This document shows positions 905 through 62,688 of a DNA stretch of 64,000 nucleotides, piece after piece. Within the stretch, counting starts at the first letter, position 1; each line of letters starts with the position of its first letter. The position numbers and the translations under genes are program-made. Below the pieces are notes generated by a model, which made no database searches, was not told the origin of the DNA, and saw only the letters and a program-made list of their open reading frames with translations. Source of the DNA: Eledone cirrhosa (Eukaryota); the NCBI GenBank assembly GCA_964016885.1, contig OZ024764.1:13268001-13332000 (forward strand), in the 5' to 3' direction.

Positions 905-1144
905 TATATGTAGAAGTTATATTTAATTTGTTGGGATACAACAAGCAAATATTTTTATAACTGATATAAAGCACTCAACAAATTATTGGAGTAAAAATAC
1001 GATATATTAACAAATGGAAACTATATTTATAAAACCATATTTATTTCATTATACATATTTCAAGGACACCAAGGCAAATTATGGTGCGCTTTCATCAGAT
1101 AAAATATAATATAGATCAGTTTTATAAATAAATATTGACATACC
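905..1144 (-). mobile_element. ~240-bp hammerhead-carrying dispersed repeat (Penelope pLTR/retrozyme-like)
   Basis: Reverse complement of 6339-6572. Abuts (TA)n. Confidence 0.7.
1042..1106 (-). ncRNA. Type I hammerhead ribozyme
   Basis: Minus strand: tattttat CTGATGA aagcgcacca-taatttgcct-tggtgtcctt GAAA tatgta TA atgaaata. Stems I and II pair. Confidence 0.85.
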
Positions 1145-1808
1145 CTTAAAGAATGCGACCATTTCTCGCGGATATTTATTTATTTATTTATTTATTTATT
1201 GATTAACAAAATTTACATGGGGACGGGAAGCTAAAAAGAATCAATCTATTAGTTCCTATCAGAAGCCCTCAGCCAACGTGTCTCACACACAAGGGGTGAA
1301 ATAGCAGTTCACATTGATATAAAATAGAATGGTAGCATTTGGTTCATGTCTCCAAGCCCCATGGCTAGAGGAAAGCAATGGTAATATATATATATATGTG
1401 TGTGTGTGTATGTATATATGTATATATCATCATCATCATCATCATCATCGTTTAACGTCCATCTTCCACGCTAGCATGGGTTAGACGAGAGTTGTCCCAC
1501 TTGAAGCAAGATTGGTTGGGTGACCGTGTCTCACTCGTATAGGACTGTCTGGTGGGTTTTCTACAGCTAGATGCCCTTCCTAACACCAACCACGTTTACA
1601 GTGCGGACTGGGAGGTTTTTACAGCGTTACCTACATGGCCACATTACAGCGTGGCCTGTGTGCTTTTTTTGTCGTGACCCCTACACAATCTCGATCTCAT
1701 TATCACATTTCTGTATATATATATATATGTATATATATAATATTGTATTCGTTGAGTAATCAACAAACAATATTAATCTTTGGTTATATATATATACATA
1801 TATATATA

Positions 1809-2665
1809 CAGGGTGCAGACGACATCTGTTCGCAATTTTCAACTGCTAATTTTATGCAAATTATTTTACTTCCGTTGTCACTCTTGTCTTCATAAAAACA
1901 GTGACTATATTTCCATTATTTATTTTCTGAATAATTGCTTATGAATAATTTTGAACCTCCAAGTTCTTGGAATCCGCGCCGGGAGGACAAATAAGGAAAT
2001 TTCAGACTTTCTCAGCGTCAGCAGGAGAATGGTATCTCAGCCAAAGACGTGCCCAGAGTCATGCAGACAAAGTTTCCAGCGACAACATTGGTCGTAGGTG
2101 TCGTCAGCAGTCAAGGTGACGTCATGCCACTTCACTTCTTCCCTGAGGGCCTCAAGCTGAACACCGATGGCTAAATCCGCGTTCTGAGCGAGGTAGTAAA
2201 GCCCTGGATCAACTAGGTAGCTTCAGGTAGGCCTTACGTGTGGCAGCAAGACTCAGGGCCCTGCCATACCAGCCAAAAGACCCAAGCCTGGCTGTCAGAG
2301 AACTTCATCGACCACACTTCACCTGACATCTGTCCTCCCAGCTCGCCTGACTGCAACCCCCTTGACTTCTTTGTGTGGGTGCAGTGGAATGAGACACCAA
2401 CAGATCTAGCTGCAATACGAAAGACGATCTGAAGGCCAGGATCACAAGTGCCTTTAGGGGCCTAAGTCGGGGGGACAGTGACAAAGGCCTGTAGTCGGTT
2501 CCGAGGCCGTCATCAAAGCCAATGGCGGGTTTATCGAGTGAGATCGAAAGAACAAGTCATGAAGACAAACTGACCCAAGTTTGATAAATATATCTTAAAA
2601 AATAAAACTACTGTCTTATTTTTTCCTAGACAGTAATCTTGCGAACAGATATCGTCCGCACCCTG
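1809..2665 (+). mobile_element. Internally deleted Tc1/mariner DD37D (maT-like) transposon
   Basis: TIRs cagggtgcagacgacatctgttcgcaa / ttgcgaacagatatcgtccgcaccctg in TA context. Peptide WQQDSGPCH...SPDCNPLD has 37 residues between the two Asp. Confidence 0.88.
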
Positions 2666-2739
2666 TATATATATATATATCTGTCTGTATGTGTGTGTGC
2701 ATAAAAATCTAAAATTCTTTTGCCATTTCCACCTGACAG

Positions 2740-2811
2740 CGCAAGTTCAAAGCAGAGACTGAAGTAGAAAATTGGATACAAAAATATGATCAAGATATGG
2801 GCCAGCTGCAG
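2740..2811 (+). CDS. IQCD: IQCD/DRC10 penultimate coding exon (RKFKAETEVENWIQKYDQDMGQLQ)
   Basis: Acceptor cacctgacag, donor CAG|gtatgt, 72 nt, phase 0-0. The peptide matches the remembered IQCD motif 'KVETEIENWIQKYD.EMG.KQ' and joins in frame to the exon at 11196. Confidence 0.88.
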
Positions 2812-59160: not shown

Positions 59161-62100
59161 GCAAGCTTTTCTGGGTGGGAAATGACAATGGGTTTGGTAG
59201 CAGAAAAGTGGGCAGATAAGATAATAGACGTAAATAGAGTGAACGACCGAATAATTAAAATAAAACTAGTCCTCAATAAAACTACGGTGACAGTAATATC
59301 TGCATACGCACCCCAATCCAGACTGCCCGGCGCTATAAAAGACAGATTCTACGAGACACTGATGCTCGCTACCTCCCAAATAACCGACAGTGACTATATA
59401 GTTATTGCAGGCGACCTAAATGGTCACGTTGGACAACATTGTGACGGCTATGACGGAATCCATGGAGGCTATGGGTTCGGTACTAGAAATGAGGAAGGCT
59501 CCAGAATCCTGGAATTCTGCGACGCAAATAACTTAACTATCTGTAACACTAACTTCAAAAAACGAGACAATCACTTGATCACCTATAGATCGGGGGAACA
59601 CACAAGCCAGGTAGATTATATCCTTACCAGAAGACGTGACAGAGTGTCTGTTGTTAACACTAAATCCCACCCCCATGAAGAATTCACCTCCCAACATAGA
59701 CTGATAATTAGCGACCTCATAGTCAGGACGAGACGTACTAGACAGCGGAAGAGGACTATCCTCAGGAGAAAAATATGGAAGCTAAAGGACCCCATAGCCA
59801 GAAATAAATTTCAAAGCATATTACTTGACGCTTTCGACAGTAAGGAAGAGCAATTAGAGTCGTATAATATAGAGGAACAGTGGGAATTCCTGAGAGCAAA
59901 CCTGCTGACGGCGGCAGACGAAGTCTGTGGCTGGAGCAGGCCTGTAGGTAGGAGGAGAGTAACATGGTGGTGGAACAGTAAGGTGGAGGAGTCAATTAAG
60001 GCCAAAAAGCAGGCTTGGAAAGTATGGCGGGATGGGGGAAGTAGAGAAGACTATCAAGTGGCCAGGAGGGAAGCTAGGAGACAAGTGTACTTCGCAAGAA
60101 GGGAAGCAGAGGAAAGAAAGTTCAAGCATGTTCTACAACGTGAGGACCAAAAACGTGAGGTGTTCAGGATTGCCAGGCAATGTGTCAAGGAAAACCGTGA
60201 TATTGTCGGGGAGAAGTGTGTACTTAACGATGATGGCATACTTGCCATCACCGACGCTGATAAGAAGGTAGCTTGGAAGTGTCACTACGAAAGGCTTCTA
60301 AATGAGGAGAACAAATGGGAGAAAGACAGTCTCCCCCCAGATCGATCCAATAGAGGGACCAGCAGTGTTAGTTGAAGGTAGTATAATAAGTAAGGCAATC
60401 AAAGATATGAAGACGGGTAAGGCGGCTGGGCCTTCGGAAATAGTTGCTGAGATGCTGAAGGCATCTGGTTCGGTGGGACACACCATGGTCACCCGGATAG
60501 TTAACCAAGTCGTACAGAATGGGGTTGTTCCGAAGGAATGGGGTAGCAGCATCATCGTTAACTGCTATAAGGGAAAAGGAGATGCCCTAGATAGGAGTAA
60601 CTATAGAGGCATTAAATTAATCGACCAGGTCATGAAGGTCACGGAAAAAGTAATAGCGCAACTAATCAGAGAGAGAATTGATCTAGATGAAATGCAGTTC
60701 GGGTTTGTGTCAGGCAAAAGTACCACAGACGCTCTTTTCATTGTACGACAACTACAGGAGAAGTACCTAGCTAAAAGTAAACCCCTATACTTAGCTTTTG
60801 TCGACTTGGAGAAAGCCTTCGACAGAGTCCCCCGTTCCATTATCTGGTGGTCTCTTAGAAAACTAGGTGTTGACGAATGGCTTGTGAGAGCTATACAAGC
60901 CATGTATAAAGAAACAGTCAGTAAGGTTAGAATTAACAACGAATATAGTGAAGAGTTTAGCGTAAAAGTTGGTGTCCATCAGGGCTCTGTACTTAGCCCC
61001 CTACTATTTATTATTGCTCTTCAGGCTATAACAGAGGAGTTCAAGACCGGCTGCCCATGGGAACTCCTATACGCAGATGATCTAACGCTCATAGCTGAAT
61101 CAATGACCGAACTAGAGAAGAAATTCCAAACATGGAAGCACGGCCTAGAATCAAAAGGCCTTAAAATTAACCTGGCTAAGACTAAAGTTCTAGTTTGTAG
61201 GAAAGAAAATAAGGCGGCGGTCCCATCTGGGAAATGGCCATGCTCAGTGTGTAGGAAAGGCGTAGGTAGAAACTCCATTTTATGTCCCAAATGCAAAGTA
61301 TGGGTGCATAAAAGATGTAGTGGGATCACAGGTAAGCTAACTAAGAACATAGATTTTACATGTGGCCGGTGTTCTGGTGCAATAAGTAGCAGCAAGTGCC
61401 CACAAAATACTAGCTCCTTCAACTGCGCAGAGGGTTCTATAGAAATAGTGGACAGCTTCCGTTATCTGGGTGACAAAATCAGCAGTGGGGGAAGGTGCTC
61501 TGAAAGTACAGTAGCTAGAGTCAGAACTGGATGGAAAAAGTTCAGAGAGCTTATACCACTATTAGCCGCTAGAGGGTTCTCCCTAAAAATGAAAGGCAGG
61601 TTATACGATGCCTGCATACGAACAGCAATGCTGCATGGCAGTGAGACCTGGGCATTGTGTGCAGAGGATATACGCAGACTAGAGAGGAACGAAGCTTGCA
61701 TGCTCCGCTGGATGTGCAATAGTAATATACGTGAACGGCAAAGCATAAACGAACTAAGGAAAAAATTAGAAATAAGAGGGATCAGATGTTGTTTACTCGA
61801 GAGAAGGCTACGTTGGTACGGTCACGTGATGCGCATGAAAGACGACAGCTGTATAACAAAGTGCAGGGCAATAAAGATAGACGGTAGCCACGGAGTAGGC
61901 AGACCCAGAAAAACATGGGACGAGCTGATAAATTCCGACCTCACACGCTTACACCTCTCCAAGACAATGTCACTGGACCGAGACCTTTGGCGGTACTCAG
62001 TAATAGAGAAGACCCGCCTTACCTAAATACAAAGTAAAAACCTACTACAGTCAGTAGGCATCTCTATCAAAACACACCCCCGTCCCACCACCTCCACCCC

Positions 62101-62541
62101 ACCCACACCGCCCCTTTCAATGTAAAGTTATGTTGGTCCCACAACATCCAGGCCGAAACAAATGAGATTGTGTAGGAGTCACGACAAAAAACACACAGTC
62201 CACGCTGTAAATGTGGCCGTGTAGGCAACACGGTAAAAACCTCCCAGCCCCACACTGTAAATGTGGTTGGTGTTAGGAAGGGCATCCAGCTGTAGAAAAC
62301 CCGCCAGACAGTCCACGCTGTAATGTGGCCGTGTAGGCAACACGGTAAAAACCTCCCAGCCCCACACTGTAAATGTGGTTGGTGTTAGGAAGGGCATCCA
62401 ACTGTAGAAAACCCGCCAGACAGTCCTATGCGAGCAAGACAACCACTCTTGCCTCAAGTGGGAAAACCCCCGTCCAAACCCATGCAAGCGTGGAACACGG
62501 ACGCTAAACCTGATGATGATGATGATGATGATGATGATGAT
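59161..62541 (+). mobile_element. Near-complete, 5'-truncated RTE LINE (APE-RT) with 3' UTR and (TGA)n tail
   Basis: SAYAPQ, GDLNGHVG, SQVDY, QHRL, QFGF and YADD motifs. One +1 shift in the C6 run at 60333-60338. Stop at 62026. Confidence 0.95.
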
Positions 62542-62622
62542 GCAGTGGTTAGAGCATTGGGCTTGCAAGTCGATGTTGTTACGGTATGTCGAATCTATTT
62601 ATCTATAAAACTGTTTATATTG

Positions 62623-62688
62623 TATTTTGTCTGAGGAAGGCATAGCATATTGTTAATATGATATCCCTGAAATATATATAATGAAATA
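62623..62688 (+). ncRNA. Type I hammerhead ribozyme
   Basis: tattttgt CTGAGGA aggcatagcatatt-gtt-aatatgatatccct GAAA tatata TA atgaaata. Confidence 0.85.

Follow-up and report, generated by a model that had tools for sequence, protein, structure and literature searches.

Type I hammerhead ribozymes with a fixed C·Y mismatch in stem II, probably carried by Hydra-clade Penelope-like elements of Eledone cirrhosa

We describe minimal type I hammerhead ribozymes found at five places in a 64,000-nucleotide stretch of the Eledone cirrhosa genome (GenBank assembly GCA_964016885.1, contig OZ024764.1, positions 13,268,001 to 13,332,000 of the forward strand; hereafter the window, within which positions are counted from its first letter). 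The five motifs are very probably the 3′-end hammerheads borne by the pseudo-long terminal repeats (pLTRs) of Penelope-like elements (PLEs) of the Hydra clade. At the fourth pair of stem II they carry a mismatch of C with a pyrimidine (C·Y) that, judging from its genome-wide pattern, is likely to be kept by selection on active master elements. The hammerhead class and the element clade are both known; the variant with the fixed mismatch is well supported and was not found in print. We tentatively propose that the mismatch acts as a gate on self-cleavage.

All five loci share one layout, which reads from 5′ to 3′ as stem I, CUGANGA, three pairs of stem II, the mismatch, a distal stem, GAA, the palindrome AUAURUAU, an A and the returning strand of stem I. 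One copy lies on the minus strand at 1042..1106, with its core at 1098-1092, C·C at 1088/1065, the palindrome AUAUGUAU and a predicted cut 3′ of 1050. The other four are on the plus strand, at 5720..5775 (core 5725-5731, C·C at 5735/5755, predicted cut after 5770), 6372..6437 (core 6380-6386, C·U at 6390/6414, predicted cut after 6429), 9179..9245 (core 9187-9193, C·C at 9197/9222, predicted cut after 9237) and 62623..62688 (core 62631-62637, C·C at 62641/62665, predicted cut after 62680). The first-pass annotation of the window had placed the five loci at these coordinates and on these strands, with the same four predicted plus-strand cuts and with proximal stem II pairs (AAG/CTT, GGT/ATC, GGA/TCT, AGG/CCT) that match the sequence. 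With CUGANGA, GAAA and a U-H cleavage site on a three-way junction with an open stem I, each locus has the core and topology of a type I hammerhead. The segment GAAA-TATRTA-TA resolves into A15.1, six nucleotides and U16.1, giving an 8-nt palindromic stem III; folding predictions do not form it as a hairpin on its own and give its self-duplex -2.2 to -10.5 kcal/mol.

Stem I is fully formed at four of the five loci, the exception being the 5720 copy, where the first stem I pair is broken (C·C); in the same family at another locus (L005) that pair is C-G. The only C·U in the window belongs to a subfamily that is C·C elsewhere, so the U at 6414 probably arose after insertion. A strict descriptor matched five times in the window and not once in 200 local block shuffles. 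Rfam reported no hammerhead at gathering score in the whole window and none at E ≤ 10 between 900 and 9400. The window copies thus have the type I topology and core of Rfam Hammerhead_1 (RF00163), the family proposed earlier for comparison, yet score below its gathering threshold.

The link to PLEs comes from longer relatives in the same genome. A protein search found near-complete copies, and eight fetched loci consist of two direct hammerheads 3.5-4.4 kb apart around an open reading frame (ORF), the first about 186 nt before the ATG and the second at the distal limit of the 3′ untranslated region (UTR). A single ORF with reverse transcriptase (RT) and, C-terminally, an endonuclease (EN) of the GIY-YIG type between hammerhead-bearing pLTRs, as in these eight units, is the organization of an EN-containing PLE; at fetched loci RT and GIY-YIG frames also lie between divergent hammerhead pairs. 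The intact 742-aa ORF of locus L128 contains RWR37, DKT118, YRDD, CxCX5C (C601-C609), YVGS, CxxC (CDLC699) and CxH (CRH726). We compared these motifs by eye with the rows of Fig. S7 of Craig et al. (2021), and we assign the elements to the Hydra clade because the motifs match its definition (PMC8557442; for this and the other papers cited, statements refer to their accessible parts). As in that clade, copies sit in (TA)n, and they show the 5′ truncation, the inverted 5′ copy and the tail at one end that characterize PLEs; the unit length, with a long 3′ UTR, lies outside the clade's tendency of <3 kb. The best database protein for the element ORF is 43% identical. In a quick RT tree, built with no outgroup and with one Hydra vulgaris protein as the only named reference member of the clade, Argonauta proteins fall into the same RT subclade. 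Pfam did not recognise ORFs P0001 and P0002, and its GIY-YIG search of the genome retrieved mostly other elements, few of the 50 loci carrying these hammerheads.

An ORF-start pattern occurs in 342 genome copies, of which we examined 40, taken in list order. A hammerhead lies upstream in 39 of them (34 exact, five with point changes), always with C·C, and the remaining copy has an inversion junction. Three of the window subfamilies (those of the 1042, 6372 and 62623 copies) were found upstream of a PLE ORF start; the 5720 and 9179 families have no ORF link of their own, and their motifs and flanks resemble the ORF-linked lineage. The hammerhead identity, the connection to PLE pLTRs and the dimer-type palindrome that the first-pass annotation had put forward are borne out by the hammerhead-ORF-hammerhead units and by the paired, covarying palindrome. 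The retrozyme origin that it offered as an alternative is not: a non-LTR retrozyme would consist of short non-coding tandem repeats with a hammerhead in each unit, and what we find instead are dispersed 3′ fragments, inverted pairs and ORF-flanking copies of an autonomous RT-EN element.

We searched the whole genome (2.996 Gb, 1,796 contigs) and judged covariation and abundance by pattern counts and pair counts. The C..C/TATRTA pattern gave 71,504 matches, as against one for the reversed pattern, and the same pattern with any 6-nt spacer gave 89,292, as against 2,309 for the control. Among the first 100 listed C..C/TATRTA matches, 32 form, by eye, 16 divergent same-family pairs. When non-TA palindromes were searched with pair 4 unconstrained, there were 32,978 matches (control, 2,791), and C·C and C·U families still emerged: among the first 100 listed, about 60 (by eye) are members of a C·U-fixed family whose palindrome is AUGCGCAU, and most of the others to a C·C family with the palindrome AUGAUCAU. 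The C·U-fixed family has roughly 18,000 copies, and we estimate C·Y hammerheads genome-wide, related families included, at near 100,000.

The case for selection on the mismatch comes mainly from an alignment of 23 hand-picked subfamily representatives. Position 10.4, the 5′ base of pair 4, is C in 23 of 23 and is the sole invariant column outside the core, and pair 4 is unpaired (non-standard) in all 23. The neighbouring pairs 1-3 and 5-7 all show two-sided changes and are 94% paired, pair 1 for instance being A-U in 10 representatives, G-U in six, G-C in one and unpaired in six. Two-sided changes occur as well in all five stem I pairs and in three of the four pairs of the palindrome (helix 4), which is 100% paired. 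The covariation score of 0.64 was reached in none of 500 shuffles, and slid controls gave at most 0.18. Unsupervised clustering of 140 loci, 30 of them chosen because they are without the C, produced 15 clusters at 80% identity, with a C·C majority in nine and a C·U majority in two. Within the TATRTA group, the 71,504 C..C matches stand beside 3,726 with another base at 10.4 (about 5%, many of them C-to-T); closed pairs (G-C 584, C-G 368) make up about 1% and are scattered over families. The RT cores of C·Y families are down to 56-61% identical at the extremes. Because C10.4 is invariant amid covarying pairs, we regard selection on active master elements as the likely reason why C·Y has been kept. 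The genome search that had been called for thus found widespread copies, six neighbouring pairs that covary and a mismatch that is retained around a constant C10.4. The earlier claim of an invariant C-C mismatch stands as to retention but not as to identity, the state being C·Y in view of the large C·U-fixed family.

The ends of the copies indicate where reverse transcription began. Measured from the cut site, the 3′ ends of 84 distinct copies fall mostly at +46 to +57 (32 copies) or at +128 to +144 (39 copies); eight copies run on into the ORF and five end elsewhere. The ends run into (TA)n, each of the two preferred ends is closely followed by a copy of an internally duplicated motif able to form a small hairpin, and the tail is about 88 nt. 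Among 17 divergent pairs, one of which is probably a neighbour rather than a pair, 12 combine a short with a long end, and none has two short or two long ends. None of the 40 examined ORF-start copies begins at the cut site. Since the ribozyme is intact in the copies and their ends lie downstream of it, the template appears to have been uncut at the 3′ hammerhead, and we infer from the copy ends that only RNA still uncut there could be copied. The ends at +50 and +140 agree with the internal initiation described for the Poseidon element PAc, where unprocessed RNA is the template, RT starts internally at two sites and hammerhead cleavage requires the protein (PMC11167929).

In the leader of L128, between cut site and ATG (999-1136), there is an internal duplication of about 45 nt with a spacing of about 88 nt. 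Each duplicate follows closely on one of the two preferred 3′ ends and has the potential to fold into an RCUC/GAGY hairpin, and we regard the duplication as a candidate RT initiation signal.

Our preferred reading, to which we assign a probability of about 0.45, is that the C·Y mismatch acts as a gate on cleavage that is lifted by the dimer or by the RT-EN protein. Two ribozymes would have to pair to build the 8-nt stem III, as its palindromic form and the likeness of published PLE hammerheads suggest. RT would start downstream of the cut, at a distance of about 50 or 140 nt, on a template that must be uncut at the 3′ hammerhead. The mismatch would cap the proximal stem II at two or three weak pairs and leave the catalytic fold marginal, and the dimer or the element's own RT-EN protein would then stabilise it; the fixed 5′ C would probably make a base-specific contact besides. 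Because cutting at the 3′ hammerhead removes the RT start sites, a gated ribozyme seems the most economical arrangement, and the fixed identity of the 5′ C would call for a specific contact too. In folding predictions, stem II of most representatives gains about 3-7 kcal/mol in stability when pair 4 is closed; the probability of pair 10.3-11.3, which is below 0.5 in 12 of 19 representatives as they stand, reaches at least 0.9 in 16 of the 19 with pair 4 closed, all of these figures being for single strands at 37 °C without protein.

That restriction is one of several points that weigh against the gate. For a pure brake any mismatch should do, but the 5′ base is invariably C, and Hydra elements elsewhere move without the C·Y mismatch: among 78 metagenome Hydra loci from outside this genome, 54 yield 52 distinct sense hammerhead stems, 48 of them paired at pair 4 and none with C·C or C·U. 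The representatives are related as well as hand-picked, so that 23 of 23 does not amount to 23 independent events, and the quick tree leaves the monophyly of the C·Y families unsettled. Two of the five window families are not tied to an ORF of their own. Several inverted pairs share a closed pair 4 on both arms, so closed forms can be copied; a short-stem GGACGTAC variant with pair 4 closed is identical at two loci, and L011 has a U-A form of the pair. Finally, the L240, L245 and L285 families live in the same genome without the mismatch.

A different role for C·Y, possible but unlikely, would be as the docking site of an activating tertiary contact with stem I or a flanking strand that speeds cleavage, like loop-loop or pseudoknot contacts. 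The mismatch stands at a fixed distance from the core while the distal stem varies in length, the 5′ C is base-specific, U2.3 is near-invariant (22 of 23), and a single added stem II pair can lower activity by displacing a tertiary contact (PMC3088659). A family-specific contact of this kind had been suggested in the first-pass annotation, but neither strand of stem I shows a conserved G or a covarying partner within its first 12 positions, and the stem II span varies from 26 to 47 nt. Moreover, some families have a stem I of 4-5 bp and others one of 8 or more, and fast cleavage would, given the copy ends, destroy the RT template.

It seems improbable that the fold is kept mainly for binding by the RT-EN protein, with the fixed C as recognition base and cleavage incidental or absent in vivo. 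Such a landmark would account for the lack of any genomic trace of cleavage among the 40 examined copies, and the accessible part of PMC11167929 reports that insertion in vitro was unaffected by mutating the hammerhead and that none of the RNA-seq reads has its end at the cut site. The catalytic core is nevertheless conserved in full, as are U16.1-H17 and the covarying palindrome (100% paired, three of four pairs two-sided), which argues for selection on a dimeric catalytic fold.

We give little credence to a switch in which a segment 20-45 nt upstream (GGUAUGUC, GUGUUU or UAUGACC) would pair with the 5′ strand of stem II, placing a G opposite C10.4. An inactive fold would be trapped during transcription, with the mismatch favouring the rival helix. 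In the main lineage the segment, G|GUAYGU, could double as a 5′ splice site and so couple intron retention to non-cleavage. An anchored helix is found at p ≤ 0.05 in 6 of 21 representatives, as against none of 21 and none of 20 in two controls (the strong duplexes of L136 and L151, which are inverted-copy artefacts, were excluded); the partner of 10.3 changes along with it (G·U, A-U, U-A), and GGUAYGU is retained where the flanks diverge. However, five of the six significant representatives share one ancestral segment, the other 15 of the 21 are not significant and include several fixed-C families, C10.4 is paired upstream at P > 0.25 in only 2 of 19 ensembles, and the GGUACGUC variant mismatches A10.5. 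As a general explanation we rejected the upstream anti-stem-II helix, which is significant in 6 of 21 representatives only and which the ensembles seldom adopt. Neither an intron-less genomic copy nor a form spliced at GTAYGT was seen among the 100 listed of 144 matches, nor was a spliced form seen in four contig sets of unrecorded type; splicing may nevertheless occur. A bolder version is very unlikely: the fixed C would be the pivot of an RNA switch whose helix with the upstream G and 5′ splice site blocks both self-cleavage and splicing, reserving the RT template. If true, it would account for the introns and the uncut ribozymes that PLE copies retain.

In the window, G|GTAYGT, which resembles a 5′ splice site, occurs 20-45 nt upstream of the core at 1138-1145 (minus strand), 6338-6346, 9160-9168 and 62583-62591, between flanks that diverge.

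A frozen accident, in which a single C·C ancestor expanded and the position is neutral, is very unlikely: the C·Y families may share one ancestor, and closed variants exist and can be copied, but every neighbouring pair has changed on both sides, the RTs have diverged down to 56-61% identity, and C10.4 is constant in all large families.

The window contains only 3′ fragments of these putative Hydra-clade PLEs, and tblastn found no PLE ORF in it. The minus-strand hammerhead belongs to a 5′-truncated 3′-end fragment at 867..1166 (-), of the AAGCGCACC...GGTGTCCTT subfamily, whose long terminus, at +143 from the cut site, runs into (TA)n. It is 85.8% identical over 303 nt to the 3′ end of the full unit L280, and its subfamily also lies upstream of the ORF start in L317. 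The fragment at 5689..5830 (+), of the GGTCATAGCC family, lies between (TA)n runs, with an approximate 3′ limit, and is 88% identical to L005. That at 6298..6573 (+), 5′-truncated and of the AAGCGCACC...GGTTGCCCTT subfamily, has a long terminus at +142 and 80% identity to L280; its subfamily is found upstream of the ORF start in L298, L322 and L330. The GGACGTACT family is represented at 9120..9295 (+) by a fragment that ends in (TA)n and is 91% identical to L285. The last fragment, at 62566..62737 (+) and of the AGGCATAGC subfamily, has a short terminus at about +50 that runs into (TA)n, and its segment 62566-62726 is 100% identical to L295, a copy upstream of an ORF start. That the 1042 (-) and 6372 (+) copies are two arms of one insertion was ruled out, as they are of different subfamilies and both have long ends.

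Hammerheads of other families occur alongside. At 6021-6051 (+), inside an inverted-repeat element at about 5860-6260, is a sixth hammerhead-like motif (CUGACGA, a 14-nt stem II, GAAA-CUAG) in which U16.1 has become A; relatives at L087, L092 and L286 have an intact ACUAGU palindrome. Elsewhere in the genome, L240, L245, L260, L276:2236 and L285 represent families without C·Y, in which the stem is paired or pair 4 is followed by a 3′ bulge, and some such families adjoin Hydra-type ORF fragments.

Among the neighbouring features, a 65-bp satellite at 2953-4893 (about 30 copies, 95% match) contains no hammerhead, and its unit accounts for about 76 overlapping 300-nt matches of the repeat finder in the window. 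At about 1810-2660 is what we take, by eye and from its motifs, to be a candidate decayed Tc1/mariner-type transposase, and the long frames at 6641-8184, 27425-28794 and 59074-62026 resemble the endonuclease and RT of what we presume to be RTE-type LINEs. A frame at 11022-11558 (+) with an IQ calmodulin-binding motif (PF00612, E 7e-6) is probably the last exon of a host gene, which we assume might be IQCD/DRC10. On the minus strand, 14591-15670 is an open frame of 359 aa, by eye a candidate glycosyltransferase-like protein.

The Hydra-clade PLEs of Craig et al. (2021; PMC8557442), among them Hydra-1_Obim, have in common with the elements described here a C-terminal GIY-YIG, DKT, RWx, a CxCX5C linker and CxxC/CxH, as well as (TA)n targets, a sense hammerhead close to the 3′ end whose stem III is a short palindrome, and inverted 5′-truncated copies with a tail at one end only. 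The units here are longer (3.5-4.4 kb, compared with generally <3 kb), the tail is about 88 nt rather than 30-40, and the palindrome usually starts with AU rather than AC. None of the 26 Hydra rows of their File S2, one octopus family included, has C·Y at pair 4 by eye, the descriptor used there having required canonical stems. The outside Hydra hammerheads that we collected vary at pair 1 as well. At three of those outside loci (L183, L200 and L216) a second, different hammerhead lies on the opposite strand near the 3′ one.

The minimal PLE hammerheads of Cervera and de la Peña (2014; PMC4209133) are likewise type I, with a palindromic 15.2-16.2 and a long helix II, occur mostly as solo copies or as opposite-strand pairs 100-700 bp apart, and were given a low-activity dimer model. 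The conserved G10.1-C11.1 and the extra base before stem II of their consensus are absent here, and the stem II defects in their Fig. S3 (U·U and C·A at pair 4, a bulge in D. virilis) are sporadic, none being fixed. With the dimer-cleaving PLE variants of Lünse, Weinberg and Breaker (2017), as described in PMC6765202, our hammerheads share a diminished stem III and the association with PLEs. The first-pass annotation knew of no description of the variant with the C-C mismatch, and we found none of the C·Y form in the accessible parts of the literature searched (including PMC6765202, PMC7229834, PMC3088659 and bioRxiv 2026.07.22.740005), the alignments and figures of Lünse et al. lying outside the comparison. 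As the variant is missed by Rfam, and probably also by descriptors that demand an unbroken stem II, such ribozymes may be undercounted in related genomes.

The role of hammerheads in PLEs has been called unclear (PMC8557442), and one study found cleavage to be dispensable in vitro (PMC11167929). This one genome combines about 100,000 copies in at least a dozen covarying families with intact ORFs, two sharp RT starts and one fixed non-canonical pair, and the fixed pair 4 would let a single-base change probe whether the element needs cleavage to be restrained in order to move. Poseidon PAc of Anolis (Frangieh et al., 2024; PMC11167929) belongs to another clade, and its hammerhead overlaps the start codon instead of lying about 186 nt upstream, yet its template too is unprocessed, and its RT starts downstream of the hammerhead at two sites, which define a tail; in the Eledone elements the two ends go with the two copies of a duplicated motif.

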